NCBI GenBank assembly: GCA_016196035.1
Contig: JACPYM010000099.1
Span: 869 to 64,868 of the forward strand
Source of the DNA: Acidobacteriota bacterium
GTDB taxonomy: Bacteria; Acidobacteriota; Blastocatellia; RBC074
Length of the DNA: 64,000 nucleotides
Reading direction: 5' to 3'
A program made the translations under genes and the position numbers. Positions 3,101 to 59,689 of the stretch are shown here, one piece after another (position 1 is the stretch's first letter; every line of letters starts with the position of its first letter). The notes beneath the pieces were generated by a model. That model saw only the letters and a list, made by a program, of their open reading frames with translations. It was not told where the DNA came from and searched no databases.

Positions 3101-3526
3101 GGTGCTGATGGTATAGAGCCGGAAAAAGATATTCGCATAGCTTTCGCGCAGCGAGCTAAACAACACCTGCTTGCCGTCGTTCGTCCAGCCCACCGCGATG
3201 TCCGGCCCCGGATGATAAGTCAGCCGCTTCGGCACGCCGCCACTGGCGGGGACGATAAACACATCGGTGTTTCCGTCATACGCGCCCGTAAAGGCGATCT
3301 GCGTCCCGTCCGGCGAAAAGTGCGGATCGCTTTCATCGCCCACGCCGCTGGTCAGGCGTTTGGCGTCGCCGCCCTCGCGCGGCACGCTCCACAAATCGCC
3401 CGCGTAGGCGAACACGATATGTGTGCGGTTGACGGTGGGTTTCTGGAACAGCGTCGCCTCTTGCGCCGAAACGACGCCGGCGAACGTGAGCAAGAACAAA
3501 ATTGCTGCGGTGATAGTTCGTTTCAT
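116..3526 (-). CDS. Tricorn protease homolog: secreted, WD40/PD40 beta-propeller repeats plus a C-terminal S41 tail-specific peptidase domain.
   Basis: 1136-aa ORF with a signal peptide (MKRTITAAILFLLTFAGVVSAQ) and repeated TolB-like PD40 motifs (SPDG, WSPDS). Also a low-complexity K/E/A/P linker and a C-terminal S41 region (GEYLLAVNGRDV... MPWYF). ATG at 3526. Confidence 0.85.
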   Translation of the reverse strand: MKRTITAAILFLLTFAGVVSAQEATLFQKPTVNRTHIVFAYAGDLWSVPREGGDAKRLTSGVGDESDPHFSPDGTQIAFTGAYDGNTDVFIVPASGGVPKRLTYHPGPDIAVGWTNDGKQVLFSSLRESYANIFFRLYTISTEGGFPTPVPLPMAERGAYSPDGLSLAYEPLFQWQPEWKRYHGGQQDVIWLAKLADSSIEKLPHENSIDRNPMWVGDKVYFLSDRNSPSGAVTLFSFDTKTKKITQCVPPAELDIKSASAGPGVIVYERLGSIHLYDLKSGKSQPVNIRVNNDLLSLRPRFEKVGNRVATSIQTGKVLAALSPTGARAVFEARGEIISVPAEKGDPRNLTNTSGVMERDPSWSPDGKWIAYFSDESGEYELHLRDQKGTGEVKKFKPSTPQTFYFAPTWSPDSKKIAYFDKKLQLWYLDIEKGTPVKVDANPIGFNEDVMQPVWAPDSRWIAYTKQLPNLLRAVFAYSLETGKADQLTDGLSDARYPAFDKGGKYLYFTASTDIGPSISWIDLSAIAHQATRSVYAIVLRNDQPSPLAPESDEEKVADEKKDEPKKDDAKPADKPAEGEKKADAAAAKPATPPAKKEPDPVRIDLEGIGQRIVSLPIPPKPYGELLAGKAGTIYLIENPPVNVDPTGPASGTLHKFDFEKRKFDKALDNVAAFIVSANGEKVLYRQGFGPAGNWVIANAATLGTPMPPGAPGGPNVLKMAEMEVHVDPQAEWRQMFKEVWRGERDFFYAPNAHGMDLKALEKLYEPYVKAVAHRSDLNYLFNDMCNQLTVGHMFIGGGDVPNPNFVAVGLLGADYKLENGRYRFAKVYNGENWNPRLRAPLTQPGINVKAGEYLLAVNGRDVRGTDNVYSFFESKAGKQVVIKVGPNPDGTGAREVTVVPTGNELGLRNLDWIESNRRKVSELSGGKLAYVHLPDTANGGYINFTRYFFAQTDKQGAVIDERFNNGGYLADYVVETLARKKLSNVFFREGGQDLSSPSGAIYGPKVMIVNEMAGSGGDAMPWYFRKLNVGQLVGKKTWGGLVASFPMPQLMDGGVVRAPDGAIYGLNGAWEVENVGVSPDVEVEFDPALWRQGRDPQLEKAVALLLDELKRNPPQPSKRPAFPNYGKPAAAGSGN

Positions 3527-3546
3527 GTTGTTGGTTCCTCACGACG

Positions 3547-3571
3547 TACAGCAGGCTGCCAGCCTGCTGTA
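3547..3571. repeat. REP-like perfect palindrome tacagcaggctgccagcctgctgta (copy 1 of 4).
   Basis: Perfect 10-bp arms around a central C/G. An identical core recurs at 3621, 17951 and 18056. Confidence 0.8.
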
Positions 3572-3620
3572 GATTTGGCGAAAGATGTAATCAGGCGGCG
3601 GCGTAATCCGCGCAAGCCCT

Positions 3621-3645
3621 CAGCAGGCTGGCAGCCTGCTGTACA
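3621..3645. repeat. REP-like palindrome cagcaggctggcagcctgctgtaca (copy 2; central base flipped relative to copy 1).
   Basis: Same core as 3547-3571, about 50 bp away, in the M16 to tricorn intergenic gap. Confidence 0.8.
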
Positions 3646-3650
3646 GACGA

Positions 3651-5042
3651 TCAAAACCCCGGCTGGCTAATGTTTTTCGTGTCCAGCTTCGGCGCATATT
3701 TTTTCGCCACGCTCTCGATCTCGCTGGCTTTGCCGATCAGCACGAAGACGAGATTGTCGAGCGGGTAATACTGTTTGATGACGCGCTGGGCATCGGCCAG
3801 CGTCATCGCGTCAATCTGTTTGTAGTAATCGTTAATGTCGCGCTCGTCCAGGCCGTAAAACTCCAGCGAAGCAAGCAGGTTCGCCAGTTGGTCGCTGGTC
3901 TCGATGGTCGGCGGGAATTGGCCTTTGATGTAATTCTTGGCCGACTGCAAATCCTTTTCACTGACGCCTTGCGTGTGCAGCCGGTTCAGGATTTCCAGCG
4001 TCAGGTCAATGGCCTTTTCGGTCGTCGCGTTGCGCGTGTAGGTTGAAATCACGAACGGCCCGCGCGCCTTGCGCTGTTCAAACCGCGCACTCGCTCCATA
4101 CGTCAGCCCCGAACTCACGCGCAGCGCATCGTTCAACATCGAAGTAAACCGTCCGCCAAACAGCGTGTTGATGACGCCGATGTAAACGCGGTCGGCATTC
4201 GAGCGCGCGATGCCTACATTGCCGATTTGGTAATAAGTCTGCGTCGCATCGGGCTTGTCCACCAGCAAGAGCTTTTTGCCCGCGACCGGTTGCGGCTCGG
4301 GCAGATTCACCGTGGGCGCTTGCTTATTCGGCCACGCGCCGAATTTACTGCCGAGCAGGCTTTCCATCTCGGCAGTATTGAAATCACCGGCGACGACCAT
4401 GATCGTATTCGACGGCGTGTAATAGCTCTCGTAAAACTTCGCGATGTCATCGCGGGTCAACGCCGCCAGTGATTTTTCATCGCCGCTGGTCGGGCGCGCG
4501 TAAGGATGCGCGCCGTACAGGTAGGCATTGAAATACTCGCCGATCACGCCCTGCGCCTGATCTTTGGCGGACTTTAACCCGTCAATGTTCTGCTTCAACA
4601 GCTTCTCAACTTCAGCGGGCGGAAAGGCTGAATTCAACAAGCAGTCGCTGAAAATCTCCAAGCCCTGCGCCAAATCCTTTTTGACGAATTCGGCGCGGCC
4701 ACTGGTGAAATCGAGCCCCGCGTTGCCGAAAAACTGCGCGCCGATGAAATCCAAATCCGCCGCGATTTGATCGGCGTTGCGCATCTTGGTGCCCTTGCGC
4801 AACAGGCTGGCGGTCAGCGCGGCCACGCCCTCTTTGCCCGCCGGGTCAGCGGTCGAACCGGCTTTGACAATAAAGCTGAAACTGATGAGCGGCAGGTCGT
4901 GCTGTTCGAGCAGTAACACGGTCAGGCCGTTTTTGAGTTTGGCTTTTTTGAAGGGCGGCAACTTGAGTCCGGCAGTTTGCGCGGGAAGGTTGGGCGCGGT
5001 GAAGAGCGCAATCAGAATGATGGTTGCGAATCGTTTTAGCAT
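3651..5042 (-). CDS. M16 family peptidase, catalytically inactive subunit-like (no HxxEH motif); secreted.
   Basis: Insulinase-like sequence. Start moved to the internal ATG at 5042 (MLKRFATIILIALFTAPNLPAQ), which gives a signal peptide. No HxxEH zinc motif is visible. Confidence 0.75.
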   Translation of the reverse strand: MLKRFATIILIALFTAPNLPAQTAGLKLPPFKKAKLKNGLTVLLLEQHDLPLISFSFIVKAGSTADPAGKEGVAALTASLLRKGTKMRNADQIAADLDFIGAQFFGNAGLDFTSGRAEFVKKDLAQGLEIFSDCLLNSAFPPAEVEKLLKQNIDGLKSAKDQAQGVIGEYFNAYLYGAHPYARPTSGDEKSLAALTRDDIAKFYESYYTPSNTIMVVAGDFNTAEMESLLGSKFGAWPNKQAPTVNLPEPQPVAGKKLLLVDKPDATQTYYQIGNVGIARSNADRVYIGVINTLFGGRFTSMLNDALRVSSGLTYGASARFEQRKARGPFVISTYTRNATTEKAIDLTLEILNRLHTQGVSEKDLQSAKNYIKGQFPPTIETSDQLANLLASLEFYGLDERDINDYYKQIDAMTLADAQRVIKQYYPLDNLVFVLIGKASEIESVAKKYAPKLDTKNISQPGF

Positions 5043-5176
5043 AGGGGTTCTCCCCTGGGTACGCAGCGCTTCCAGCGTGCTGGCTTGGCAATTGACGGCT
5101 GGTGGCTGAAAGGAAGCCCTCCGGCCAGCTTCCGTCTGCCGCCAAGACTGCACGCAAGGATGCGTGCGTACCCAGG

Positions 5177-6496
5177 TTATTGCTTCTCCGGCACCAGCGT
5201 CACAACGGTGCGGTTCTTCTCGTTGAAATACTGTTTGGCCACGCGCTGCACGTCTTCTTTCGTCACCTTGGCGTAATCATCGGCGGCGCTGAACAGCTTT
5301 TGGTAATCGCCGAAGAAGACTTCGTAGGTGCCGATGGTGTTGGCCTTGCCGCTGATGGTTTTCATCTGGCGATAAAAGCCGGCCAGCAGGATGTTGCGCG
5401 CCTTCTGCAATTCGTTGTCGGTGACGCCGGCGTTTTTGACTTTGTCGAACTCTTCGTAAATCGCGGCTTCGACCTGCGCCGGCGCGACGTTGGCTTTGGG
5501 CTGCGCGTTCACGGTGAAGAGCGTCGGATCGAAGGTTGCGCCGAAGCCGCCATTCACGAACAACGCCAGTTGATCTTTGTCCACCAGGCGCTGATACATC
5601 CGCGAGCTTTGGCCCGAAAACAAAATTGTTTGCAGCATCTGCAAGGCGTAATAGTCGGCGTGCCGCGCTTCAGGCACGTGATAGCCCAGCAGCAAAATCG
5701 GCAGTTGCGCGAATTTCTTGACCACGGCGCGGCGTTCGCCCAACTGTTCAGGCTCGCGCGTCGTGACAGGCGCGGGCGCGGCGTGTGACGGAATCGGTTC
5801 GATGTATTTTTCGGCCAGCTTGAAAATCTCTTCGGCAGTGATGTCGCCGCTGACGACCATCGTCGCGTTCGACGGCGCATAGCCCATCTCGAAATGCCGC
5901 TTGAGGTCTTCGAGCTTCCAGTTCTCAATGTCCACCATCCAGCCGACGACCGGCCACTGGTATGGGTGGGCGGTGTAAGCGTCGGCATAAAGCTGTTCGA
6001 ACAAGATGCCGAAGTTGTTGGCGTCCACCGACGAGCGCCGTTCGGAAGCGACGACGCCACGCTCGGATTCGATAATCTTGGGATCAAAGCTCAGATCGCG
6101 GATGCGGTCGGCTTCGAGATCGAAGATCAGTTCGAGCGCCGATTTGGGAAACCAGTCCTGATAGACGGTCAGGTCGCGATTGGTATAGGCGTTGTTCGAG
6201 CCGCCCGCCGCTTCCATCGTCTGGTCAAATTGTTTCGGGCCGTATTTCTTGGCGCCGTTGAACATCATGTGCTCAAAGAAATGCGAAAGCCCTGTCGTGC
6301 CGGGGCGTTCGTTGCGCGAGCCGATGCGATAGAAGACGTACAGCGCAACGTTCGGGATCGAACGGTCTTCTTCGACGATGATCTTCATGCCGTTTTTGAG
6401 CGTGTGCGTTTTGATTTGGAATTGCTGGGCAAAAACGTCGCTGGCAAGCAGCGCGAGTAAGGCAAGCAGGAGGCTTGCACATTTCCCTGGCCTCAT
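5177..6496 (-). CDS. M16 family zinc metallopeptidase (pitrilysin/insulinase-like), active subunit.
   Basis: HFFEH (HxxEH) zinc-binding motif near the N-terminus. Signal peptide MRPGKCASLLLALLALLASDVFAQ. ATG at 6496. Confidence 0.85.
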   Translation of the reverse strand: MRPGKCASLLLALLALLASDVFAQQFQIKTHTLKNGMKIIVEEDRSIPNVALYVFYRIGSRNERPGTTGLSHFFEHMMFNGAKKYGPKQFDQTMEAAGGSNNAYTNRDLTVYQDWFPKSALELIFDLEADRIRDLSFDPKIIESERGVVASERRSSVDANNFGILFEQLYADAYTAHPYQWPVVGWMVDIENWKLEDLKRHFEMGYAPSNATMVVSGDITAEEIFKLAEKYIEPIPSHAAPAPVTTREPEQLGERRAVVKKFAQLPILLLGYHVPEARHADYYALQMLQTILFSGQSSRMYQRLVDKDQLALFVNGGFGATFDPTLFTVNAQPKANVAPAQVEAAIYEEFDKVKNAGVTDNELQKARNILLAGFYRQMKTISGKANTIGTYEVFFGDYQKLFSAADDYAKVTKEDVQRVAKQYFNEKNRTVVTLVPEKQ

Positions 6497-6756
6497 AACT
6501 TTCTCCCTTTTGAATCAGGATCATGCGGAACTGCATTTGAAATCGGATGCTATCTGAACAGCGGCTTACGCAGCAAGCGCGGACAGGGTTTCAGCGAATT
6601 TGGCTGTAGTTGTAATCCAGTTGTAAAAGGTTCAGCGCCAAGTCTGGCGGGCCGCACAGGGGCCCCAATTTTTTACCGAAAGAATTATTTCTGCCGGTAA
6701 ATGTTTCGGGGCTGTTGCCGCCTTTACCTGAACTTGGCGTGCCAGGGCAACTCAGA

Positions 6757-6900
6757 CAAAGCGCGGCGCACGGGGACGGTGCCGCGCGCGTGAGCAAGCG
6801 GCGGCTGGACGTGAGCAAGCGACGGCTGGAAGGTTACCCCCTTGCGCCAAACCTGCGATGCCGCTTGCTCACGCGCGCGGCACCGTCCCCGTTGCTCTTT
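6757..6900. repeat. MITE-like palindromic element (copy A): terminal inverted repeats cacggggacggtgccgcgcgcgtgagcaagcggc / gccgcttgctcacgcgcgcggcaccgtccccg.
   Basis: Inverted repeats of about 33 bp flanking a roughly 50-bp spacer. Related copies at 23650-23760 and 44565-44625. Confidence 0.7.
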
Positions 6901-7520
6901 CCCTGGCCCTGCTCCCGAATTTTTTACAGGAAGAGTTATTTTTAGAAAAAAAGCATTTGCACCCCAACGCCAGGTATTTTTCGGCCAGCTTCGCCGCACT
7001 CATACAGCGGGAGAAACTGTTTACCGTGGCCGCCCGCCTGCATCGTCCCGTTTTTTTAGGAACGATTCGGGCACGGCAGTCCCCGGTACAGTCTCGGGAG
7101 CGATAGCGCTTGGGCGAGTTATAGCAAGCGACTCGTTGTATGCAGGTACGCCAACCGCTATCGTTCCCGACACCACGACAAGCTCGCGGCGAGGCGTTGG
7201 TAACCCGGCCTCGTTACGGTTGCCTGAATCAGGCGAGTTATGCCAAACTGCCTTTGCTCTTAAAAGCAAAGACGGGACATCACAGAACGAAGGATTTCCC
7301 CCAGCCATAACAAAGATTTTCCGCGCTAAAAAAGCGATTGGCTCTGCTGGCATTGAAAGCTGTCGTGACGCTCAAAGCGGTACAGAGTTGACCGTCACTG
7401 GTTATTTGCAGTTCAGCTTGTTGTTCTCTTTCTCCCACGCGGTACAACTCAAGACCCTAGATTGCATTGATTGGTTTGCCGCACATTTGGTGCGACCGGT
7501 CTGACAATCAAACAACGCGA

Positions 7521-8846
7521 ATGAAAAACGCACTTACCAAATTGGCAGTGATGGGCGGCTTGGCGCTGGCGGCAATCTTCCAGGCGTTAACTGGTTCCGC
7601 CGTCCAAGCCAATGTGACGGGGCCGCCATCGTCACGCACGGGCGCGCCCAACTTAGGTGTCATCGCCGCCGAGCCGAATTGCACGGCTTGTCACGGTCCC
7701 TTTCTGGTCAACGGCGGGCCGGGCGAAATCAGCTTGAGCGGGTTGCCGCCGGTTTACACGCCAGGGCAGGAAATCGCTGTGACCGTCAGCATCACGCAAT
7801 CGGGCCGGGGCCGCTTCGGCTTTGAGGCGATGGCGCTCGAAGACCTGGGTCGCCGCGCCGGTGAGTTGCGCGTGACCGAGGCGACGCGCACCCGCCTGGT
7901 CGAGGGACAAGGCGCGTTTGGCGGTCGGCAATACATACAGCACTTGCAACCCGGCACAACGCCCAACCCGCCGGGGCAGAATAGTTGGAGCTTTCTCTGG
8001 CGCGCGCCGGCGCAAAGCGTGGGCCGCGTGACGTTTTATGTCGCGGTCAACGCGGCGGATGGCACCGGCGGCACGGGCAACGATTACATCTACACCACCA
8101 GCCAAAGCCTGCAACCGGCGGGCAGCCCGGTGACGGCATCGGCGGCCAGCCTGGTGCAAACCGGTTCGCTGACGGTGGAATCTATCGCCACGCTGTTCGG
8201 GGCCAATCTCTCAGACGGTGTCGCTGCTGCCGCCACGACGCCGCTGCCCGTCGAATTGGCGGGCGCAAAAATCCGCGTGCGCGATCAGGCGGGTGTCGAA
8301 CGCGACGCATCGCTCTTTTTCGCCGCGCCGTCACAAATTAACTACTTAATTCCGCGCGGCACGGGCAATGGCATTGCGACGATCAGTGCGTTGCGTAACG
8401 GCACGGTCATTGGCAGCGCCACGCAATTGATCGAAACGGTCGCGCCCGCGCTCTTCACTGCCAATGCCACCGGGCAAGGCGTGCCGGCAGCGGTGCTCTT
8501 GCGCCGCAATGCCGCCGGGCAGGATCGCATCGAACCGGTGACCGCCTTCAATAGCACGACAGGCCGTTATGAAGCCGTGCCGCTTGATTTGGGGCCGGTC
8601 AGCGACCAGGTCTTTTTGATTGCCTTCGGCAGTGGCTTTCGCAATCGCGTGGCCAACAACAACATCGCTTGCCTAATCGGTGAAGTGGAATCCGAAGTGC
8701 TTTTTCTAGGCGCGCAAGGCTCGCTCGAAGGTGTGGATCAATTGAATGTGCGCATTCCACGCAATCTGGCGGGCCGCGGCGAAGTGCCGGTGCAGTTGAA
8801 CGTCAATGGCAAACGCGCCAACACGGTGACCATAAATTTCCGATAG
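7521..8846 (+). CDS. Secreted paralog 1: N-terminal Cys-motif domain (PNCTACH, CxxCH) plus the C-terminal Solibacter-type domain (Soli_cterm-like).
   Basis: ATG at 7521 gives signal peptide MKNALTKLAVMGGLALAAIFQA. The N-domain is conserved with the three following genes (GPPxxRTGAP...C..CH...YGFE...RQYI.H...PNG.NQ.SW.F.W.AP...G.VTF). The C-terminal 220 aa share ASLVQTG...LFFA.P.QIN...[13 protein letters not shown]...IDLGP..DQV.L..FG.GFR...ANTV with the other Soli_cterm proteins in this window. Confidence 0.8.
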   Translation: MKNALTKLAVMGGLALAAIFQALTGSAVQANVTGPPSSRTGAPNLGVIAAEPNCTACHGPFLVNGGPGEISLSGLPPVYTPGQEIAVTVSITQSGRGRFGFEAMALEDLGRRAGELRVTEATRTRLVEGQGAFGGRQYIQHLQPGTTPNPPGQNSWSFLWRAPAQSVGRVTFYVAVNAADGTGGTGNDYIYTTSQSLQPAGSPVTASAASLVQTGSLTVESIATLFGANLSDGVAAAATTPLPVELAGAKIRVRDQAGVERDASLFFAAPSQINYLIPRGTGNGIATISALRNGTVIGSATQLIETVAPALFTANATGQGVPAAVLLRRNAAGQDRIEPVTAFNSTTGRYEAVPLDLGPVSDQVFLIAFGSGFRNRVANNNIACLIGEVESEVLFLGAQGSLEGVDQLNVRIPRNLAGRGEVPVQLNVNGKRANTVTINFR

Positions 8847-9037
8847 ACAATTTCCGGTAGCGCGTTTTGTGTGCAGCAAAACCGGCGAGGCTCCGTTCAT
8901 TCTGCAACCCCGAGCAGCCCCCAGACACTGCCCGGCAGAGGCAGTTCAAACACAGCAAAACTAGCAGTAAAACAAAATCACGGCTGACAAAAAAATCAGT
9001 CAACCTGGCAACTTTTAACAGGAAGGATCAAGACTCC

Positions 9038-10366
9038 ATGCAGCAACCCACAAAGACGCTATCCCTTTGTCTCAAGCTTACTCTCACGGCCCTTTTCGGT
9101 TTTGGGGCCATCACGTATTGCTACTACGGACCATCCGCCGCCGCCTTTTCGGGCGGCCCGCCCGCCTCGCGCACGCTGGCGCCGGTGCTGGGCACGTTCC
9201 CGGTGGAGACCGCCTGTAACGCCTGCCATCAGTCGTTTCCCTTGAATAGTGGTCCGGGCGTACTCTCTATCAGTGGCCTGCCTGCGACGTACATGCCCAA
9301 TCAGGAAATCACCGTTACGGTGCGGGTCGCTCAGGCCGACCGTGGCCGCTATGGCTTTGAGGCACAAGTGCTCGACGATCAAGGCCGCAAAGCAGGTGAT
9401 TTGGTTGTCACGGATGCCGACCGCACCTCGCTCGTGGATGGCGCTGGCAATTTCGTAGGGCGGCAGTACATTCGTCACACGTTGGCCGGGGTTGCGCCCA
9501 ACGGCACGAATCAGAATAGTTGGAACTTCACTTGGAAGGCCCCAGTGCAAAGCGTGGGTCGCGTAACCTTCTTCGTCGCGGGCAACGCTGCAAATTTCAA
9601 TAGCGCGAACACGGGCGATTACATCTACACCACGAGCCAGAGCCTGCAACCGGCGGGCAGCATCGTGCTCGGTTCAGCCGCCAGTCTGGTGCAAACCGGC
9701 AATACGACAGCCGAAGGCATCGTCTCGATCTTCGGCACAGGTCTAGCGGATGCGATGGCGGCGGCGACCGTGCTGCCGCTGCCCACGACACTGGGCGGCG
9801 CGAGCGTGAAGGTGCGCGATTCTGGCGGAATGGAACGGAACGCCGGACTTTTCTTCGCGTCACCGCAACAAATCAACCTGCTGGTGCCCGCAGGCACGGC
9901 GGCGGGCATTGCCACCGTCACCGTGACACGCGGCACGTCCAGCCTGAACGCCACGATTCTGGTTGAAACGGTTGCGCCAACTCTTTTCACGGCGAATGCG
10001 AATGGCACAGGCGTTCCGGCTGCCGTGCTGGTACGACAGCGCGGCACGACACAAACCGTCGAGCCGGTCTTCCAGGGCGCGGCGGGCAATGCGCAGCCGT
10101 TGCCGATTGACTTAGGCCCCGAGGGCGATCAAGTTGTGCTCGTGCTATTCGGCAGCCAGTTTCGCGCCCGCACCGGCACGAACAACCGCGCCTTGCTCGG
10201 CGTCACAGACGCGACCGTCCAATTCGCTGGCGCACAGGGCGATCTGGTCGGCCTCGATCAAGCCAACATCCTCATTCCGCGCACATTGGTGGGTAGCGGT
10301 AACGTGAATGTCGGCTTAACCATTGATAATCGGCGCGCCAACTTGGTGACGATCAATATCAAGTAG
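9038..10366 (+). CDS. Secreted paralog 2: Cys-motif domain (TACNACH, CxxCH) plus Soli_cterm-like domain.
   Basis: ATG at 9038 with AGGAAGGA RBS and signal peptide MQQPTKTLSLCLKLTLTALFGFGA. Same two-domain architecture as 7521-8846. Confidence 0.8.
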   Translation: MQQPTKTLSLCLKLTLTALFGFGAITYCYYGPSAAAFSGGPPASRTLAPVLGTFPVETACNACHQSFPLNSGPGVLSISGLPATYMPNQEITVTVRVAQADRGRYGFEAQVLDDQGRKAGDLVVTDADRTSLVDGAGNFVGRQYIRHTLAGVAPNGTNQNSWNFTWKAPVQSVGRVTFFVAGNAANFNSANTGDYIYTTSQSLQPAGSIVLGSAASLVQTGNTTAEGIVSIFGTGLADAMAAATVLPLPTTLGGASVKVRDSGGMERNAGLFFASPQQINLLVPAGTAAGIATVTVTRGTSSLNATILVETVAPTLFTANANGTGVPAAVLVRQRGTTQTVEPVFQGAAGNAQPLPIDLGPEGDQVVLVLFGSQFRARTGTNNRALLGVTDATVQFAGAQGDLVGLDQANILIPRTLVGSGNVNVGLTIDNRRANLVTINIK

Positions 10367-10371
10367 GCGGG

Positions 10372-10437
10372 TTCAGAGTTCACGCTTCAACGTGTGCCTT
10401 CGACTTAGACACGCTGAAGCGTGAACTCTGAACACCT
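10372..10437 (+). terminator. Strong hairpin (gttcagagttcacgcttcaacgtg / cacgctgaagcgtgaactctgaac) after paralog 2, followed by a T-rich tract.
   Basis: Near-perfect inverted repeat of about 26 bp beginning 6 bp after the stop codon, then ctctttctt. Confidence 0.5.
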
Positions 10438-10655
10438 CTTTCTTGCAGGGCGCAAAACCAGCCTGGCGAATTGGTCGGCAGGATCATGCTTGCAAGCGCG
10501 CCCAGGCGCACGCTACACATAAAATCAGACCAGCACCGGTGTTGTTCGACTCAAACACCGGCAGTTTTATGGCTTTTCAATTTTTACTTTGGAGGTGAGA
10601 GCGTGACAGGGGCCCGGAGTAAGCATTCCAACACACTGCGCGCCAAATTCTTGCT

Positions 10656-11993
10656 ATGAAAATGTACCTGCTTAAATTTTCGATCATCGGCGGCTTTCTC
10701 GCCCTGGCGCTGTGTTTCGGCGTCACGGGCCGCAAAGTGAAAGCCAATCAGAGCGGCCCCCCTGCGCAACGCACCGGCGCACCCGGTGAACAGACCTGCG
10801 CGCTTTCCGGCTGCCACACCAGCTTTGCGCTCAACAGCGGTTCTGGTGTTTTAACGCTGACGGGGTTGCCGAGTGGCGGTTATACCGAAGGCCAGCAGAT
10901 CAGTCTGACCGTGACGCTTTCCCAACCAAACCGCCAACTCTATGGTTTTGAGATTACGGCACTCGATAGTCAGGGGCGGCGCGCAGGAACGCTTACCGTG
11001 ACTGACAATAACCGCACGCTGTTGCAAACCTCGGTGGTCAACGGCAACCTGCGCCAATACATCAGCCATAACTTTGGTGGTTCGGGGCCAAACGGTACGA
11101 ATCAAGGTTCCTGGAACTTTCGCTGGACCGCACCCGCGACCAGCACGGGCGCAGTGACGTTCTATTTCGCCGGCAATGCCGCCAACGGAAACGGTAGCGA
11201 AGACGGCGACTTTATTTATACCAGGAGCGCCGTGGTGCAACCGGGCGCCAGCGGCCCGCAAGCCTGCGCCACAATCTCGGCAGCCAGCTTTGCGCAGGGC
11301 GCATTTGCACCCGAAACCATCGTGGCGCTGTTTCCGACAGCGATGGCGAACCTGACGGGCGGCGCTTCGGCCAGTGCGACGACGATTCCGCTGCCAACCG
11401 AATTGGCGGGCGTGATGGTCAAGATCAGAGATGCGGCGGGCACCGAGCGCAATGCCCCTCTCTTTTTTGCGGCTGACGGCCAGATCAATTTCATGGTGCC
11501 GCTGGGTTCAGTGAATGGCGCGGCGACCGTGACAGTCATGCGCGGAACTACCGCAGTCGGCGCGGGCACGTTCAACATCGAGACCGTCTCGCCGGGTCTG
11601 TTCACCGCCAACGCGAACGGCCAGGGAGCGCCTGCCGCGCTGATCTTCCGGCAAACCGCTAGCGGGCAGCAATCGCAAGTGGCAGCGGCGGTGTTCAGTC
11701 AAGCCACCAATCGCTTTGAGCCGGTGCAGATTGATCTGGGGCCGGAAGGCGATGTCGTGCTTCTCATCGGATTTGGCACGGGCTTCCGCAACCGCACTTC
11801 GCTGAGCAACGTGAGTTGCACCATCGGCGGCACCAACGCCACCGTGGATTTTGCCAGCGCGCAAGGCGGCCTGGCTGGCTTGGACCAAACCAACATATTC
11901 ATCCCGCGCAGCCTGATCGGACGCGGGCTGGTTGACCTGGTGTTTCGAGTGGATGGGAAAACCGCCAACACCGTGCAATTGAATATCAAGTAG
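10656..11993 (+). CDS. Secreted paralog 3: Cys-motif domain (QTCALSGCH, CxxxxCH) plus Soli_cterm-like domain.
   Basis: ATG at 10656 with signal peptide MKMYLLKFSIIGGFLALALCFGVTG. Same architecture as paralogs 1 and 2, but the Cys-His motif has a 4-residue spacer. Confidence 0.8.
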   Translation: MKMYLLKFSIIGGFLALALCFGVTGRKVKANQSGPPAQRTGAPGEQTCALSGCHTSFALNSGSGVLTLTGLPSGGYTEGQQISLTVTLSQPNRQLYGFEITALDSQGRRAGTLTVTDNNRTLLQTSVVNGNLRQYISHNFGGSGPNGTNQGSWNFRWTAPATSTGAVTFYFAGNAANGNGSEDGDFIYTRSAVVQPGASGPQACATISAASFAQGAFAPETIVALFPTAMANLTGGASASATTIPLPTELAGVMVKIRDAAGTERNAPLFFAADGQINFMVPLGSVNGAATVTVMRGTTAVGAGTFNIETVSPGLFTANANGQGAPAALIFRQTASGQQSQVAAAVFSQATNRFEPVQIDLGPEGDVVLLIGFGTGFRNRTSLSNVSCTIGGTNATVDFASAQGGLAGLDQTNIFIPRSLIGRGLVDLVFRVDGKTANTVQLNIK

Positions 11994-12016
11994 GCTTAAC
12001 CGTGGCAAGCGAAGTA

Positions 12017-12059
12017 CTCACCTTGTAGTAACGAATAAATTCGTTACTACAAGGTGAGC
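12017..12059 (+). terminator. Perfect 20-bp stem hairpin (ctcaccttgtagtaacgaat aa attcgttactacaaggtgag) after paralog 3.
   Basis: Perfect inverted repeat with a 2-nt loop, followed by cttcattcg. Confidence 0.5.
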
Positions 12060-12081
12060 TTCATTCGCCAATAAACTCCAA

Positions 12082-13401
12082 ATGCGCGTTCTGAAACTTT
12101 CCCTCATCTGCACGTTCGTCATGCTGGCCGCAATCGGCTGGCACAACCAACGCGCGCGCGCCAGTTCCAGCGGCCCGCCCGCTTCGCACACGGGCGCGCC
12201 CAGCGAACCGACGTGCGCAATTTCGGGCTGTCACGGCTTCACCACCAACGATGGGCCGGGCACGCTGACGCTGACGGGTTTGCCGGAACTCGGCTACGCG
12301 CTCAACGAACAATACGACGTGACAGTCACGCTGACACAGGCGCAACGCGCGCTCTACGGTTTTGAAATGACGGCCATTGACGCCAATGGCCGCGCAGCCG
12401 GTCAATGGGACAATCTGGAGCCGCGCCGCATTGATTTGGTCAACAATCGCGTCGGCGCGAATACGCGTGTTTACGCCGGCCACACACAAGCAGGCACCGC
12501 GCCCAACGGGCCGAATCAGAGCAGTTGGGTGCTGCGTTGGAAAGCCCCCGCCACCAACATTGGCCGCGTCACCTTTTATGTCGTCGGCAATGCCGCTAAT
12601 GGCAACGGTGCAACGAGCGGCGATTTCATTTACACCATTAACCGCAGCATTCCGTTTTTTGTGGCCGCGCCACAAGCCGTCGCCACGGTTTCCGCCGCGA
12701 GCTTTGCACAGGGAGCGCTGGCCGGTGAAACCATCGCCGCGCTCTTTGCGCAAGGCGGCTTGTCCCTCGTGACGGTCGCCGCCACGACGACGCCGTTGCC
12801 GACCGTGTTGAGCGGCGTCACAGTGCGCGTCAAAGACGCCGCGAATGTCGAACGCGATGCGCGCCTGTTTTTTGTCTCGCCGCAACAAATCAACTTTCTG
12901 ACGCCACAAGGCACCAGCAACGGCACGGCAACCATTACCGTCTTGCGCGACAACAATCCGGTGGGGGCGGGCACGCTCAATATCGAGACCGTTGCGCCGG
13001 GTCTATTCGCGGCCAACGCCAACGGGCAAGGCGTTGCCGCCGCCGTGGTGTTGCGCGTCAAACCAGATGGCACGCAGAGCATTGAACCCATCGCGCGGTT
13101 CAATGCGGCCGCCAATCGCAATGAAGCGTTGCCGCTGGATTTCGGGCCGGAAAGCGACCGGCTCTTTCTGATTCTGTTCGGGACGGGGTTCCGCTTGCGC
13201 AGCGCGCTGGGCAATGTGAATTGCACCATCGGCGGCACAAACGCTGCCGTGGATTTCGCCGGTGCGCAGGGCGATCTGGCCGGACTCGATCAAGCCAACA
13301 TTCAATTGCCGCGCAGCCTGGCAGGCCGCAACGCCACGCTCGATCTGATCTTGCGCGCGGATGGCAAGGCTGCCAACACTGTGCAAATGGCGGTGAAGTA
13401 G
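12082..13401 (+). CDS. Secreted paralog 4: Cys-motif domain (PTCAISGCH, CxxxxCH) plus Soli_cterm-like domain.
   Basis: ATG at 12082 with signal peptide MRVLKLSLICTFVMLAAIGW. Same architecture as paralogs 1-3. Confidence 0.8.
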   Translation: MRVLKLSLICTFVMLAAIGWHNQRARASSSGPPASHTGAPSEPTCAISGCHGFTTNDGPGTLTLTGLPELGYALNEQYDVTVTLTQAQRALYGFEMTAIDANGRAAGQWDNLEPRRIDLVNNRVGANTRVYAGHTQAGTAPNGPNQSSWVLRWKAPATNIGRVTFYVVGNAANGNGATSGDFIYTINRSIPFFVAAPQAVATVSAASFAQGALAGETIAALFAQGGLSLVTVAATTTPLPTVLSGVTVRVKDAANVERDARLFFVSPQQINFLTPQGTSNGTATITVLRDNNPVGAGTLNIETVAPGLFAANANGQGVAAAVVLRVKPDGTQSIEPIARFNAAANRNEALPLDFGPESDRLFLILFGTGFRLRSALGNVNCTIGGTNAAVDFAGAQGDLAGLDQANIQLPRSLAGRNATLDLILRADGKAANTVQMAVK

Positions 13402-13648
13402 TTTAGACTGCCTTTGCACTTCAACTGACCTACTTACCTATTCGGCTCGCTGGGACTAAGAGCAACTCCACTGACGATCAACACATTCTTTTTTTAGCGC
13501 AGCGCCCCACAGGCAATGCCAATTTTGCAGCAAACGAGCGATGGCTGGGTTCCGGCCTGTCCTACTTCCACGCAGGACAGCCTGGCCTCCACCGTCACCC
13601 ACCACTGACAATTGAGCCACGGCTCAGAACAGCGAAAGGAATAGAACA

Positions 13649-15556
13649 ATGAGAAAAAGCGGTTTTATCGCATCCCTGGCAGCGTTCGCGTTGCTAATGC
13701 TGGCTTCGGCCTTTACCCCAGTGCAAGCTGAAGTCCTGATGGCCAATGTGCTGGGAACGCCACTCGCCGAAACACCACCGATTACCACTTTGAACGCTTC
13801 AGGCGGCTTCAACATCACCATCAACGTCACCCGCGATGCCGCCGGCAACATCACCGCCGGCACGATCACTTTCATCGCCCAGGTGCAGTTCCCCGGCAGC
13901 GTCAGCTTCAACGGCTTCCACATTCACGAAGGCGCGGCGGGCATCGCCGGCCCGGTGCGCTTCAACACCGGTTTGAGCGGCACCAATACCCGAGATTTTG
14001 CCAGCGGCGCAGGTCTGATCTTGCCCGACCCCGTCGTCGTGACCGATCTGGCGGCGTTGGCGCGGCTGCTCGCCAATCCAGCGGGCTTTTACGTCAACCT
14101 GCACTCGTCGGTGAATCCGGGCGGCGCGATTCGCGGCCAATTCACCACGTTGACCGAATCGCTCAGCAACACGGTCGCGATGACTGGGGCGCAAGAAGTT
14201 CCGCCCATCACCAACGCAGAAGCCAACGCCACTGGCACGGGCACGCTCACCTTCAACCCGACGCGTAACGCGCTGGGTGTGATCAATGGCGGCAACGTGA
14301 CTTTCACAGTGGATTACAACTTCCCCGGCGCAACCACTTTCACCGGACTACACATTCACGAAGGCCCGGCGGGCGCGGCGGCTGGCGTCGTAATCAATAC
14401 CGGTCTCAACGGCGCCGCCAGTGCGCTCGTTTCCCCCACGGGCAAAGGTTTGGTGAGCATCACGGTGCCCATCACCACCGCCGCGCAGATCGGCGCCTTG
14501 ACCCGCTTGATCGCAAACCCGACAGGCTTTTACGTCAATATACACACCACCCTTAACGGTGGCGGCGCGGTTCGTGGACAATTGACCAGCCTGAGCCGTC
14601 CGCCCGTCATCGCGCAAGTCAGCAAATATGTGCTGCCCACCGGCAATGCAAACGCCACTTTCGCGATGACTGTAACGGGGCTGGACTTGCTGAACCTGCT
14701 CGCCAGCACCGTCCAGATCAATGGTCAGACGGCCACGGCGGTGCCCGACGTGAATACCGGCCTGATCACCGTGACCGTGCCCGCCGCGTCGCTCGCCAAC
14801 GCCGGTGTGTTGAACGTGCAGGTCAAAGCCCCCAACGGCACACTCTCGCTGCCGCTGAACATTCCGGTCGTCCCGGCGGCTTCGCTCAACAGCCAGGCGG
14901 TGGCCGTGGTGGATTCCGCCAGCTTCCGCGCCGGCGCAGCGTCTGAAAGCATCGCCTCGGCGTTCGGCACCAAACTGGCGTCTACGTTTGCCACCGGGAC
15001 TGGCGCGGTCTTGCCGATTTCACTGGATGGCACGAGCGTTTACATCAACGGCGTCAATGCCCCGCTCTTCTTCGTCTCGCCGGGCCAGATCAACTTCGAG
15101 GTGCCGGTCAGCACCTTGAGCGGCCCCGGCGCCATCGTCATCGTCGCCAAAGACGGCACGGTGTCACAGGGGCAAATTCTCATCGGCGATATTTCGCCCG
15201 GCATCTTCACACGTCTGGCGAATGGGCAGGGCGCGCCGTCGGCAGTCGCGTCGAATGACAACGGCGTGACCTTCACCATCGTCATGAGCAATGCCGACGG
15301 CACGCCGGTCGAAATCTCCGCCGGCAACATCGCGGTGCTCTTCGGCACCGGTCTGCGCTTCAAAACTGGCGACGTGACCGCGACCGCAGGCGGCGTGACC
15401 GGCTCACCTTCCTTCGTCGGTGCGCAAGGCGGCCTCGTAGGTTTGGATCAGATCAACTTCACCATCCCGCAATCCCTGGCGGGCAAAGGTGAAATGGATT
15501 TGGTGCTTTCCCTTGACGGGAAACAAACCAATCCCGTGCGGATCAAGGTGAAATAA
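13649..15556 (+). CDS. Secreted protein with two CHRD domains, a middle region, and a C-terminal Soli_cterm-like domain.
   Basis: Signal peptide MRKSGFIASLAAFALLMLASA. Two copies of the CHRD signature (FHIHEG...FYVNLHSSVNPGGAIRGQF and LHIHEG...FYVNIHTTLNGGGAVRGQL). The C-terminal 220 aa are homologous to the C-termini of 7521-13401 and 57280-59610. Confidence 0.8.
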   Translation: MRKSGFIASLAAFALLMLASAFTPVQAEVLMANVLGTPLAETPPITTLNASGGFNITINVTRDAAGNITAGTITFIAQVQFPGSVSFNGFHIHEGAAGIAGPVRFNTGLSGTNTRDFASGAGLILPDPVVVTDLAALARLLANPAGFYVNLHSSVNPGGAIRGQFTTLTESLSNTVAMTGAQEVPPITNAEANATGTGTLTFNPTRNALGVINGGNVTFTVDYNFPGATTFTGLHIHEGPAGAAAGVVINTGLNGAASALVSPTGKGLVSITVPITTAAQIGALTRLIANPTGFYVNIHTTLNGGGAVRGQLTSLSRPPVIAQVSKYVLPTGNANATFAMTVTGLDLLNLLASTVQINGQTATAVPDVNTGLITVTVPAASLANAGVLNVQVKAPNGTLSLPLNIPVVPAASLNSQAVAVVDSASFRAGAASESIASAFGTKLASTFATGTGAVLPISLDGTSVYINGVNAPLFFVSPGQINFEVPVSTLSGPGAIVIVAKDGTVSQGQILIGDISPGIFTRLANGQGAPSAVASNDNGVTFTIVMSNADGTPVEISAGNIAVLFGTGLRFKTGDVTATAGGVTGSPSFVGAQGGLVGLDQINFTIPQSLAGKGEMDLVLSLDGKQTNPVRIKVK

Positions 15557-15560
15557 GCAA

Positions 15561-15680
15561 GTAGTCAGTAGGCAGTAGTCAGTAGGCAGTAGTAGCAAGC
15601 AGTCGGCGTGGCAACCCGCTTTCTGCCTGCTGCTACTGCCTACGCCGTTACGGCCTACGGCTACTGACTACTGACTACTC
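15561..15680. repeat. Heptamer-based (AGTAGTC/AGTAGGC) tandem repeats arranged as an inverted pair, forming a long hairpin between the CHRD gene and the symporter gene.
   Basis: gtagtcagtaggcagtagtcagtaggcagtagtagc at 15561-15596. Its inverted complement ctactgcctacg...ctactgactactgactact is at 15633-15679. Confidence 0.7.
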
Positions 15681-15687
15681 CCTCTCT

Positions 15688-34686: not shown

Positions 34687-35010
34687 CGAGACTCTCCTTA
34701 GGAGTTTCAACTGTTAATGGATTGGCAAGCTGCCGCGCAACAGTTTGCCGCTGCCTATTCGATTTTCCGTACTAACAAAACTTTGTGTTTATGAGTTGGA
34801 ACCAGTGAAGTTCGGCGCTTTCACTATCGTGCCCTGGCGCTTCAAATGATCGCTGAAAAGCGCCTCCGTAGCCTTACTCGCCCACCTAATGTGAGACCAG
34901 AATGGTGAAAGTGCGGGGCCAAGATAGCACTAAGATATGATTCCGGCAAATTCTTAGTGCTCATCTCGCAACTTTTTTTGTCGCAAAACAGAATTTTTCA
35001 TTCGGCCTGC

Positions 35011-36675
35011 TTACACCACTTGTTTGCGTTCGCGCGACCCGGCAATTTTCATCTGATCGCGGTACTTGGCCACCGTGCGCCGCGAAAGTTTTTGCCCCTC
35101 GCCCGCCAGCACTGCCGCAATTTGATCGTCGGTGAGCGGACTCCGCGCGTCTTCGGCCTCGATCATCTTTTTGATTTTGAGCTTGATGATACGGGTCGAG
35201 ACCTCCTCGCCGTCGTCGTTGGTCATGCCTTCGGTAAAAAAGCGGCGCAATTCGATCACACCTTGTGGTGTGTGCGCCCACTTGCCGTTGACCACGCGCG
35301 AAACCGTCGAAAGATGCATGCCGATGTCTTCGGAAATATCCTTGAGCATCATCGGGCGGATGTATTCGACGCCCTTGTCCAGGAATTCGCGCTGGCGCTC
35401 GACGATGCGTTCGCAAACCTTATAGATCGTCTGCTTGCGATGCTCGATGTTCTTGAGCAAATCCACCGCTGAACGAAACTTGTCTTTAATATAGTCGCGC
35501 GTCTCTTTAGTGGTCTCTTTGTTTTCCAGCATCTGCCGGTATTGGCGATTGATGCGCAATTGCGGCAGCCCGTCATCGTTGAAGCGAATGACGTATTCGT
35601 TATCAATTTTTTCGATGTAAACCTCGGGCGCGATGTACTGGGTTTCGGGTGGCGCATAACGGCGGCCCGGCTTCGGTTCCAATTGGCGGATGAGCTTGAG
35701 TTCGGCCGAGACGGCTTCAACGGGCACGCCAAGTTTGCGCGCGACTTCAGGCAGCTTGTGGTTTTGCAGTTCGTGAAAATGCTCCCGGATCATGCGGCAC
35801 GCCAGCCGGTCACCATAGCCATGGGCTTTCAACTGTAACAACAAGCATTCGCGCAAATCGCGCGCCGCCACGCCGGTCGGATCGAATTGCTGAACAATTT
35901 CCAAAGCCTGTTGCAGTACTTCGTGCGACCAAGGGCCTGACGCCGCAATTTCATCGAGGGAGCCGTCAACAAAGCCATCCTCGTTCAGGTTACCAATGAT
36001 CGCTTCCGCCGCGCCGCGCACTTCGTCATTGGGCATGATCGTCAACCGCAACTGCCACATCAGGTAATCGTAAAGGCGGTCTTCGGTCTTGAGGAATTGC
36101 TCGAAGGAGGGCGTTTCTTTGACTTCGGTTTCGCGCGTGCGATAGCCGGGGTCCAGGTACTCTTCAAAGGTCGAGCCGAAATCAATCTCGTCAAAGGCGT
36201 CGCGCTGGCCAATCTCAGGCTCGTTCGTTTCAATCGCAACTTCAGGAGCGCGTTCAGCGAACGTTTCGCCCGTGGGCGCAGCACTGTCGCCGTAACTTTC
36301 AGACTCGCCGTACTCTGAGCGGGCATATTCACTGTATTCGGCAGAGGCTTCGTAACTGCTCTCGCCCTGGCGCGTATCGAATTGGGCGGCTTCATAAGCG
36401 TGTTCAGCCGCAGCGGAGGGTAACTCCCCCGTGCCATTCGCTACGCCATTAGCGGCGGCTGGCGAATCGCTAAAATCCACATTAGCCAGATCTGGTGAGA
36501 CGTACACTTCATCCGGCGCCAGTTCTTCCAGCACCGGATTTTCCACCATCTGTTGAGTGACCAGTTCGCTCAACTCAAGCTTGGTCATCTGCAACATCTC
36601 GATGCGCTGACGCAATTGCGGTGTCAGCACTAGCCGTTGCGCAAGATGAGTTGAGAGCGTCGGTTTGAATGACAT
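35011..36675 (-). CDS. rpoN: RNA polymerase sigma-54 factor.
   Basis: N-terminal activator-interaction region ([17 protein letters not shown]), an acidic region, and the C-terminal RpoN box (ARRTVAKYR). Confidence 0.95.
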
Positions 36676-36680
36676 AGGAC

Positions 36681-36722
36681 GTAGTCAGTAGTCAGTAGTC
36701 AGTAGTCAGTAGTCAGTAGTCA
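36681..36722. repeat. (GTAGTCA)6 perfect heptamer tandem repeat between lptB and rpoN.
   Basis: Six identical units read directly. Confidence 0.9.
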
Positions 36723-36751
36723 GTTTCCCAACCACCAAAACGGACATCGGC

Positions 36752-59610: not shown

Positions 59611-59689
59611 GTTTCCCTCTTGTTTCTTGCTGCCCAACCGGATGTTTATGGGAAAGGCAAAATTTCAACTTGTGCCGCTGGTTTCCCGC

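Follow-up and report, generated by a model that had tools for sequence, protein, structure and literature searches.

A five-gene cluster for exported Reeler-type and CHRD proteins with a common C-terminal module in a soil Acidobacterium: candidate surface redox or metal-binding proteins

Main finding

Five genes (g1 to g5) of a soil Acidobacterium, located on the plus strand at positions 7521–15556 of the window (the entire analysed stretch of 64,000 nucleotides), code for proteins that may be surface-displayed haem or metal redox proteins, a reading adopted here tentatively and at somewhat less than even confidence. Each product is predicted to be Sec-exported and to consist of a cargo head joined to a common tail, which would keep or sort the cargo at the cell surface. 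The heads of g1 to g4 would represent four old, specialised surface electron-transfer or metal centres, and that of g5 would contribute two copper-type CHRD domains. Jointly, the five proteins might perform extracellular one-electron chemistry, e.g. the handling of superoxide or other reactive oxygen species (ROS), or the reduction or oxidation of metals or humics. The first-pass annotation had proposed a surface or extracellular apparatus for redox, metal or polysaccharide binding. Judged from sequence comparisons, the evidence leans towards a redox or metal role over glycan binding, because the Cys/His motifs are invariant and related genes in Bacteroidota have cytochrome c-like neighbours. 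Observed directly are the genes and their domains, folds, homologies, synteny, selective constraint and invariant motifs, while the surface location, the function of the tail, the cofactors and the chemistry are deduced from these.

Gene cluster

The four similar genes g1 (7521–8846; 441 aa), g2 (9038–10366; 442 aa from the ATG at 9038, with the ORF open upstream from 8867), g3 (10656–11993; 445 aa) and g4 (12082–13401; 439 aa) precede g5 (13649–15556; 635 aa). By inspection, all five products possess a Sec-type signal peptide with basic n-region, hydrophobic core and AxA-like cleavage site (residues 1–30 in g1), and none displays a good lipobox. ORF and HMM analyses thus bear out the first-pass annotation, which had described five same-strand signal-peptide genes sharing a C-terminal module. 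All domain families of the cluster were previously catalogued. Directly 3' of the g2 stop codon, a hairpin with 25-nt arms (96 % complementary) at 10371–10433 possibly acts as terminator or mRNA stabiliser; it was not called by a consensus terminator scan. A second hairpin with perfect 20-nt arms is located between g3 and g4 (12017–12058).

Common C-terminal module

The tails of g1 to g5 match TIGR03437 (Soli_cterm) in NCBIfam with 112–135 bits (E 2.6e-32 to 2.2e-39; curated cutoff 29.05 bits), confirming the family assignment of the first-pass annotation. Alignments extend from positions 1–3 to 223–225 of the approx. 225-position model, and the module forms the extreme C-terminus in each case: nt 8139–8837 in g1 (residues 207–439; 121.6 bits), 9674–10363 in g2 (112.4 bits), 11277–11990 in g3 (132.5 bits), 12688–13398 in g4 (135.5 bits) and 14906–15553 in g5. 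The end of the module is nearly fixed: among 120 homologues, 38–39 residues separate the GLDQ.N motif from the C-terminus in 104 and 100 terminate in K or R, the typical ending being GK-x-ANTV-x-I-N-I-K/R. Structurally, the module is modelled as two tandem IPT/TIG-type Ig domains (AF2 model of the g3 C-module, pLDDT 93.1). Heads joined to Soli_cterm vary, including PKD, cohesin, papain, DUF3500 and Laminin_G domains, and matches occur in MAGs of Blastocatellia, Bryobacteraceae and Solibacteraceae, next to a few MAGs labelled Heliobacteriaceae. A sixth Soli_cterm protein is encoded elsewhere in the window (57280–59637, minus strand).

Since related cargo proteins of other phyla carry T9SS, PEP-CTERM, dockerin or transmembrane tails at this place, Soli_cterm is, by analogy, probably a surface-retention or sorting module of this lineage. 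It shares with the T9SS CTD an Ig-like β-sandwich placed strictly C-terminally on many unrelated secreted proteins of one lineage, a terminal hydrophobic-x-hydrophobic-K/R strand and the equal position on one cargo family. The likeness is one of functional analogy; Soli_cterm is three times larger and is built from two IPT/TIG domains. Neither Por_Secre_tail (Pfam) nor TIGR04183 (NCBIfam) is matched by g1 to g5, whereas the Bacteroidota relatives do match.

Reeler-like N-terminal domains

The heads of g1 to g4 belong to the choice-of-anchor V family NF041895 (NCBIfam cutoff 42 bits), with matches of 94.7 bits for g1 (residues 24–195; nt 7590–8105), 101 bits for g2 (nt 9137–9640), 97.9 bits for g3 (nt 10731–11228) and 83.1 bits for g4 (nt 12151–12636). 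At 50 % identity, this bacterial Reeler-type family resolves into at least 4,000 clusters; it is named but uncharacterised. The first-pass annotation had stated that none of the modules has a known function, and indeed none has been tested in bacteria; a literature search found no paper on TIGR03437 or bacterial Reeler proteins.

A loose resemblance to Reeler/DOMON-type domains had also been suggested. Profile and fold comparisons both show the N-domain to be homologous to solved Reeler domains, and the heads of g1 to g4 constitute a bacterial branch of the Reeler domain. DOMON is not supported, no DOMON family being matched by g1 to g5 in Pfam at E ≤ 0.1. The Pfam Reeler model (PF02014) itself detects only g2, below its gathering threshold (15.4 versus 21 bits; E 0.028), and leaves g1, g3 and g4 unmatched. 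The domain folds into a nine-stranded Greek-key β-sandwich (AF2 model of the g3 N-domain, pLDDT 95.2), in which the N-terminal arm is best conserved; cohesins, p53 and integrin domains occupy the top ranks in Foldseek.

PF02014 includes the N-terminal domains of reelin and F-spondin, insect Noduler/Reeler and the head of the ferric reductases FRRS1/SDR2/CG8399. While in eukaryotic Reeler domains one Cys pairs with a distant Cys, bacterial members carry two neighbouring Cys with an invariant His directly behind them (C-x2-5-C-H). Proteins matching NF041895 are typically T9SS cargo of about 280 aa from Bacteroidota and the FCB group, but also include the MXAN_6652 family. They have in common with g1 to g4 the N-domain with its invariant C-x(n)-CH and the architecture of a single head with a sorting or anchor element at the C-terminus, which among choice-of-anchor V homologues is a T9SS CTD (31 of 79), a dockerin (2) or otherwise a PEP-CTERM-like sequence, a transmembrane tail or Soli_cterm. 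In g1 to g4, in contrast to the Bacteroidota cargo, the two-Ig Soli_cterm of about 225 aa replaces the T9SS CTD of about 75 aa, and the four paralogues lie in an array to which a CHRD gene is linked.

Age and conservation of the cluster

Pairwise identities among g1 to g4 amount to 48–59 % for the N-domains and 51–60 % for the C-modules; the C-module of g5 shares 36–44 % with the others. Chance cannot account for HMM scores and identities of this size. A separate orthologue of every paralogue exists in other MAGs, with dN/dS values of 0.16–0.17 for g1 (versus the orthologues in loci L001 and L002), 0.145 for g2, 0.118 for g3 and 0.105 for g4; the g5 orthologue in L006 is 93 % identical on the amino acid level (dN/dS 0.13). 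Hence, g1 to g4 are old paralogues (48–60 % identity) under purifying selection (dN/dS 0.10–0.17) and not, as initially proposed, an expanded and diversifying family. An array with the CHRD gene behind it is present in at least four further Blastocatellia/Acidobacteriota MAGs: L003, L005, L007 and L008 each contain between one and four Reeler-like/Soli_cterm genes ahead of a 2xCHRD-TIG-Soli_cterm gene. L006 is a fragment ending within the CHRD gene, and L002 leaves its contig after four Reeler-like copies. The flanks differ between genomes except in close relatives, and the cluster is a self-contained, vertically inherited unit of Blastocatellia-type Acidobacteriota.

Cys/Cys/His motif

Both Cys and the His are invariant in all 122 aligned choice-of-anchor V members. 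The Cys residues are separated by two residues in 173 of 262 members, by three in 24 and by four in 61, with His always next after the second Cys; among fairly close relatives, the spacing ranges from two to five. All four copies in the cluster follow the signal peptide, as CXXCH in g1 (CTACH, 7680–7694, residues 54–58) and g2 (CNACH, 9215–9229, residues 60–64) and as CX4CH in g3 (CALSGCH, 10797–10817, residues 48–54) and g4 (CAISGCH, 12214–12234, residues 45–51). The "strictly conserved" C..CH block of the first-pass annotation overlooked the latter two, and the preceding RTGAP is likewise not uniform (RTLAP in g2). An insertion of six residues precedes the first Cys in g1 and g2. The motif, about 18 residues past the cleavage site of the signal peptide, falls into the best-conserved segment of the domain, for which the model is of high confidence (pLDDT 84–95).

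From these patterns we infer that the N-terminal arm holds a redox cofactor, most likely a covalent c-type haem or, alternatively, a Cys2His-bound copper or other metal. Among haem c sites, CX3CH and CX4CH occur naturally or are tolerated, and a purely structural disulfide would not normally be spaced as CXXC. Variation of the spacing between two and five residues is rarely seen in haem c sites but typical of disulfide or metal loops. An invariant distal ligand is lacking, Gln taking the place of the one further conserved His in 16 of 124 sequences. The domain matches none of the cytochrome families in Pfam or NCBIfam, and no sequence-level similarity to the cytochrome f large domain or to Cyc2-type fused mono-haem proteins was detected. 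It differs from cytochrome f also in its Cys spacing (2–5) and in that its haem site is only putative. Because cytochrome f is absent from the Foldseek top 50, the likeness to it may reflect no more than the common Greek-key fold. The distance of the motif from the N-terminus is variable, making an α-amino sixth ligand as in cytochrome f unlikely. For the eukaryotic counterparts, haem c is impossible in extracellular proteins, Reeler domains included, and the F-spondin Reeler domain was reportedly crystallized without cofactor.

Neighbourhoods of Reeler-like genes in Bacteroidota

In 13 of 35 Bacteroidota loci, a lipoprotein of about 125 aa is encoded next to the Reeler-like gene, in 10 of them at position +1. 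Its profile retrieves from the PDB almost only class I cytochromes c (PccH, CcoP, c6, c551, FoxE), with scores of these neighbours remaining under curated cutoffs. A DUF5777 membrane barrel occurs in five Bacteroidota loci and a YceI-like protein in one. In contrast to Bacteroidota, the loci of g1 to g4 lack the cytochrome c-like lipoprotein and DUF5777 neighbours, and no cytochrome gene adjoins the acidobacterial cluster.

Double-CHRD protein

The signal-peptide protein g5 carries two Pfam CHRD domains (PF07452; CHRD1, nt 13769–14140; CHRD2, nt 14174–14584) with 51.3 and 65.5 bits when scored individually and 98 bits over the entire protein (cutoff 24.1 bits), in agreement with the first-pass annotation. 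An IPT/TIG or choice-of-anchor Z repeat (NF058597; nt 14618–14845) connects the CHRD pair to Soli_cterm. Across 55 CHRD domains, the H-I-H, third His and Arg of an HxH...H...R pattern are invariant or nearly so. They correspond to HIHEG (13919–13933), NLHS (14096–14107) and AIRGQ (14126–14140) in CHRD1 (span 13919–14140), and to HIHEG (14351–14365), NIHT (14537–14548) and AVRGQ (14567–14581) in CHRD2 (span 14351–14581).

CHRD domains adopt a Greek-key barrel that resembles SOD (PMC13382577). In microbial CHRD domains, G(F/L)HIHE, the third His and the Arg are retained in the same succession as the copper ligands of SOD1, and GFHIHE aligns with the copper-ligand strand GFHVHE of SOD1 in an hhalign match covering just six residues. 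The pattern would accordingly form a three-His copper-type site with a guiding Arg, its residues being putative equivalents of SOD1 His46, His48, His120 and Arg143. Unlike Cu,Zn-SOD, CHRD is devoid of the zinc loop, the bridging His and a fourth copper ligand, and g5 yields no Pfam Sod_Cu hit at E ≤ 10. A Polynucleobacter CHRD protein is encoded next to a catalase-related peroxidase, both ranking among the most strongly up-regulated proteins in the same cold and UV stress tables.

Functional interpretation

The main and a distinctly possible alternative to redox or metal chemistry is that g1 to g5 are non-catalytic surface adhesins or matrix scaffolds, with glycan- or polymer-binding heads on an Ig stalk. 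The Cys pair would then form a small structural disulfide stiffening the N-terminal arm, for which a loop of variable Cys spacing would be well suited, and the His/Arg residues would line a site for anionic polysaccharides (EPS, cell envelope, plant or fungal polymers). Several relatives fit this picture: the F-spondin Reeler domain is a heparin-binding module of the extracellular matrix, Reeler proteins of insects and crustaceans attach to bacteria and influence biofilms, the CHRD domains of chordin bind heparan sulfate but not metal, ExsM, a Bacillus CHRD protein, is a component of the exosporium, and the IPT/TIG domains of the tail resemble those of Bacteroides surface glycan-binding proteins. 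Yet Cys-Cys-His or HxH...H motifs that are 100 % invariant over thousands of diverged sequences are rare for glycan sites, the commonest Cys spacing (CXXC, 173 of 262) is atypical of a structural disulfide, and the recurrent cytochrome c-like neighbours in Bacteroidota find no account.

It is rather improbable that the heads scavenge copper, iron or haem for an uptake system without electron transfer. Invariant Cys2His and His3 motifs do suit metal binding, and in three related Bacteroidota loci (L058, L067, L068) genes for a TonB-dependent receptor and a DUF5074 protein precede the Reeler-like gene on the same strand. This TonB context is, however, limited to that one closely related group, TonB receptors or transporters are not among the conserved neighbours of the acidobacterial cluster with its varying flanks, and four maintained paralogues plus a double-CHRD protein appear too much for simple capture.

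A scan limited to sigma-70 promoters detected no promoter-like sites. That the genes are an artefact or decaying, functionless duplicates is effectively refuted by intact reading frames, HMM scores far above cutoffs, dN/dS values of 0.10–0.17 against orthologues and a gene order conserved in several MAGs.

Within the favoured reading of g1 to g5 as surface redox or metal proteins, a more specific version is conceivable, albeit unlikely in its entirety. The bacterial Reeler-type domain could be an unrecognised all-β surface mono-haem cytochrome of the c type, or possibly a Cys2His metal centre, whose C-x(2-5)-CH site can be stretched. A small conduit in Bacteroidota would then consist of this domain as outer component, the lipoprotein cytochrome c and the DUF5777 barrel; in Blastocatellia, the partner of the domain would be the copper-binding, SOD-like double-CHRD protein, with the uncharacterised two-Ig C-terminal sorting module (Soli_cterm) holding all of them on the cell. 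If true, the animal ferric reductases FRRS1/SDR2 might likewise use their Reeler head in a cofactor role.

Gene organization and domain assignment

Five consecutive functional genes on the + strand (g1, 7521–8846; g2, 9038–10366; g3, 10656–11993; g4, 12082–13401; g5, 13649–15556) constitute the array with a common C-terminal module that had been noticed in the first-pass annotation between 7521 and 15556. By inspection, every product possesses an N-terminal Sec-type signal peptide, and none a convincing lipobox. In all five proteins, an NCBIfam HMM search identified the final ~225 residues as TIGR03437 Soli_cterm (112–135 bits; cutoff, 29 bits), in agreement with the family named in that annotation. 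The N-domains of g1–g4 belong to NF041895 "choice-of-anchor V" (83–101 bits; NCBIfam cutoff, 42 bits), while Pfam confirmed the two CHRD domains expected for g5 and revealed an additional Ig domain (IPT/TIG), a stretch named choice-of-anchor Z repeat by NCBIfam. Among g1–g4, identities amount to 48–59 % for the N-domains and 51–60 % for the C-modules, the latter sharing 36–44 % with that of g5. A loose resemblance of the heads to DOMON-type domains, also proposed initially, was rejected, as HMM searches of g1–g5 yielded no DOMON signal.

Conservation and intergenic regions of the cluster

The nearest public relatives are metagenome-assembled genomes (MAGs) of Acidobacteriota and Blastocatellia, with orthologues of g3 and g5 in GFS_6987 displaying 90 and 93 % amino acid identity, respectively. 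A 2xCHRD-TIG-Soli_cterm gene preceded by one to four Reeler-like/Soli_cterm genes recurs in the loci L003, L005, L007 and L008 of other genomes; L006 is a fragment ending inside the CHRD gene, and L002 contains four paralogues ordered as in the window, after which its contig ends. In a neighbour-joining tree, each paralogue of the window groups with its own orthologue from other genomes and each retains its motif type (CXXCH or CX4CH). The duplications, judged from this paralogue-by-paralogue pairing, are therefore older than these species, and dN/dS values against orthologues are 0.10–0.17 for all of g1–g5; contrary to the "expanded, diversifying" family initially envisaged, the expansion is neither recent nor diversifying. 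Flanking genes are common only to the closest relatives and different elsewhere, and no conserved neighbours of the acidobacterial cluster were detected outside close relatives among the related loci compared. The divergent upstream genes for a tricorn-type protease (PD40/PDZ_Tricorn/S41, 1136 aa) and two M16 peptidases (116–6496, - strand) are likewise present in L001 and L002; since this arrangement is kept in the closest relatives only, it is probably unrelated to the function of the cluster. Recurrent gene order, old paralogues, low dN/dS and differing flanks thus define the cluster as a real, constrained and self-contained unit.

Scans of the cluster region revealed no sigma-70-like promoters, no match to Rfam families and no more terminator-like sites than in shuffled sequence, and g1–g5 share no upstream repeat. 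The ~1-kb region upstream of g1 harbours a perfect 33-nt inverted repeat (6770–6802/6860–6892; spacing, 57 nt) flanked by 28-nt direct repeats (6663–6690/6914–6941; 86 % identical). This structure at 6663–6941, for which Rfam gave no match, could represent a small repeat, a mobile element or a regulatory structure. Long hairpins directly follow the stop codons of g2 (10371–10433) and g3 (12017–12058), and a block of AGTAG(G/T)CAGTAG-type repeats with several inverted repeats is located 3' of g5 (15560–15683); a simple terminator scan made no call at these three sites.

Reeler-like head of g1–g4

A profile search of 1.84 billion cluster representatives retrieved 4,051 head-family representatives at E ≤ 1e-30, a count used instead of the 151,016 matches at E ≤ 0.001, which are inflated by the T9SS CTD columns of the profile. 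Most of these relatives measure ~280 aa and carry a T9SS tail. On the profile level, Reeler homology of the family, representing a bacterial branch of this domain, is demonstrated by the recovery of F-spondin Reelin-N structures (E 2e-5) and by Pfam Reeler matches of 36 out of 79 members (best E 2e-10); g1–g4 of the window themselves score below the Pfam Reeler threshold. The literature searched contained no paper on TIGR03437, none on Reeler proteins of bacteria or of the T9SS and none linking Reeler to cytochrome f, and a "choice-of-anchor" match in a paper on an iron stimulon was discarded because it concerns family J rather than V.

The N-terminal arm, ~18 residues past the cleavage site, reads GPPxxxTGAPGExxC-x(n)-CH, and all 122 aligned members (122 of 122) retain both Cys and the His. 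Of the spacings, n = 2 is found in 173 members, n = 3 in 24, n = 4 in 61 and n = 5 rarely, and each protein always contains exactly one such motif. The C..CH part of the strictly conserved block described in the first-pass annotation holds for g1 and g2 (CXXCH), but not for g3 and g4 (CX4CH), and the TGAP of the block is replaced by TLAP in g2. A single further His is conserved in the head, and 16 of 124 sequences have Gln in its place.

Neighbours of the head family were examined in 35 Bacteroidota-type loci, collected with a narrow Bacteroidota alignment as query. In 13 of them a ~125-aa lipoprotein is encoded beside the Reeler-like gene, in 10 cases at position +1 on the same strand; the arrangement was noted at L058, L062, L067–L071, L077, L078, L082, L100 and L101 (e.g., L069:7847–8224). 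Its profile matches among PDB sequences, each of them weak, are almost only class I cytochromes c (PccH 4rlr, E 0.0027; CcoP; the haem region of hydrazine synthase; c6; c551; FoxE), and its Pfam/NCBIfam matches mostly fall under the cutoffs. In these alignments, the Cys-x(n)-Cys-His of the lipoprotein, likewise stretched to C-x(2-6)-CH, lies on the haem site and an invariant Met-Pro on the axial Met. A DUF5777 membrane beta-barrel adjoins in five loci, a YceI-like protein occurs in one, and a TonB-dependent receptor together with DUF5074 in three closely related ones. This neighbourhood hints at a small conduit of cytochrome, barrel and surface protein in Bacteroidota. The pattern is not present at the acidobacterial cluster, and no other credible CXXCH gene was found in the window or in related loci.

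CHRD head of g5

Acidobacteriota commonly encode double-CHRD proteins, and CHRD proteins with a single domain (~175 aa) are widespread. Across 55 aligned CHRD domains, the H-I-H motif, a third His and the Arg of ...RGQ are invariant or nearly so. The microbial G(F/L)HIHE resembles the copper-ligand strand GFHVHE of SOD1, and the order HxH...H...R may parallel His46, His48, His120 and Arg143 of that enzyme. The hhalign comparison with SOD covers six residues only (GFHIHE/GFHVHE; Prob 6.8 %) and is to be read on the motif level, and phmmer with the CHRD pair of g5 gave no match among PDB sequences. Chordin structures from 2026 revealed CHRD to be a Cu,Zn-SOD-like Greek-key barrel devoid of the long metal loops, and the CHRD of chordin to bind heparan sulfate but not metal (PMC13382577). 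In Polynucleobacter, a CHRD protein gene adjoins that of a catalase-related peroxidase, and the same tables of cold and UV stress list both products with some of the strongest up-regulation; in Bacillus, a CHRD protein is a component of the exosporium.

Soli_cterm tail

In its homologues, Soli_cterm is joined to heads of many unrelated types (PKD, cohesin, papain, dioxygenase, DUF3500, PPC and NHL among them), the module always forming the C-terminal end. The GLDQ.N motif lies 38–39 residues from the C-terminus in 104 of 120 homologues, and the consensus ending ...GK(T)ANTVxINI is followed by a final K or R in 100 of the 120. Modelling shows the tail to be built of tandem Ig domains. Its identification as a T9SS CTD was rejected, as neither Pfam nor NCBIfam yielded a Por_Secre_tail match. 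In other phyla, the same head family ends in a T9SS CTD (31 out of 79) or in dockerin, PEP-CTERM-like or transmembrane tails; by position and analogy, Soli_cterm probably acts as the surface-retention or sorting module of this lineage.

A sixth Soli_cterm protein of the window (785 aa; 57280–59637, - strand) bears a Laminin_G_3/concanavalin-like head and a C-module 49 % identical to that of g3, so that the tail serves unrelated cargo in this genome. MAGs labelled Heliobacteriaceae/Heliomicrobium (Bacillota) encode Soli_cterm modules 40–51 % identical to that of g3 (L019, L027, L028, L038, L041–L043 and L052), reflecting either mislabelled bins or a module not limited to Acidobacteriota. A giant ORF of 2747 aa with at least nine DUF11 repeats, DUF7619 and DUF7927 (26467–34710, - strand) probably codes for another large surface protein. 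An operon-like stretch (35011–40101, - strand) comprises sigma-54 (rpoN), an LptB-like ABC ATPase and a 771-aa LptC/LptA-domain fusion of unusual length for Lpt bridge components.

Possible function of the cluster

The reading tentatively favoured here, at somewhat below an even chance, is that g1–g5 encode cofactor proteins held at the surface. In the Reeler-like arm, the cofactor would be c-type haem or a Cys2His-coordinated metal, the CHRD domains would hold copper at a three-His site, and both protein types would jointly perform extracellular one-electron chemistry. This is supported by the invariant motifs, CXXCH as the commonest spacing, the position of the motif in an exported, N-terminal and confidently modelled arm, the cytochrome c-like partners in Bacteroidota and the SOD-like fold of CHRD. 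Opposed to it are the varying Cys spacing, the lack of an invariant distal ligand, of cytochrome HMM matches and of a cytochrome neighbour at the acidobacterial cluster, as well as the cofactor-free, glycosaminoglycan-binding nature of eukaryotic Reeler and CHRD domains. Binding of c-type haem by the arm, taken alone, is rather unlikely. The main competing explanation, a non-catalytic set of glycan- or matrix-binding adhesins in which the Cys pair forms a structural disulfide, is a possible if less probable alternative. Capture of metal or haem is a third and improbable option.

All modules already have catalogue entries (TIGR03437, NF041895, PF02014, PF07452), and the genes would be named by an annotation pipeline; Soli_cterm, bacterial Reeler/choice-of-anchor V and microbial CHRD are large and uncharacterised families. 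Neither the conserved clustering of Reeler-like and CHRD genes nor the C-x(2-5)-CH motif running through the whole family, the association with cytochrome c-like neighbours or the reading of Soli_cterm as anchoring or sorting module appears to be described in the literature searched; all four are put forward as hypotheses. Acidobacteria belong to the most abundant bacteria of soil and, to our knowledge, their cell-surface biology is poorly known. Were g1–g5 plain adhesins, the finding would reduce to routine genome annotation. Should the invariant C-x(n)-CH and HxH...H...R motifs bind haem and copper, the cluster would point to a type of extracellular redox protein that is widespread in soils and sediments but has not been studied, and would suggest a testable hypothesis on the Reeler head of animal ferric reductases. 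A sorting or anchoring function of Soli_cterm, if real, would make the module a marker of the surface proteome in whole acidobacterial lineages.
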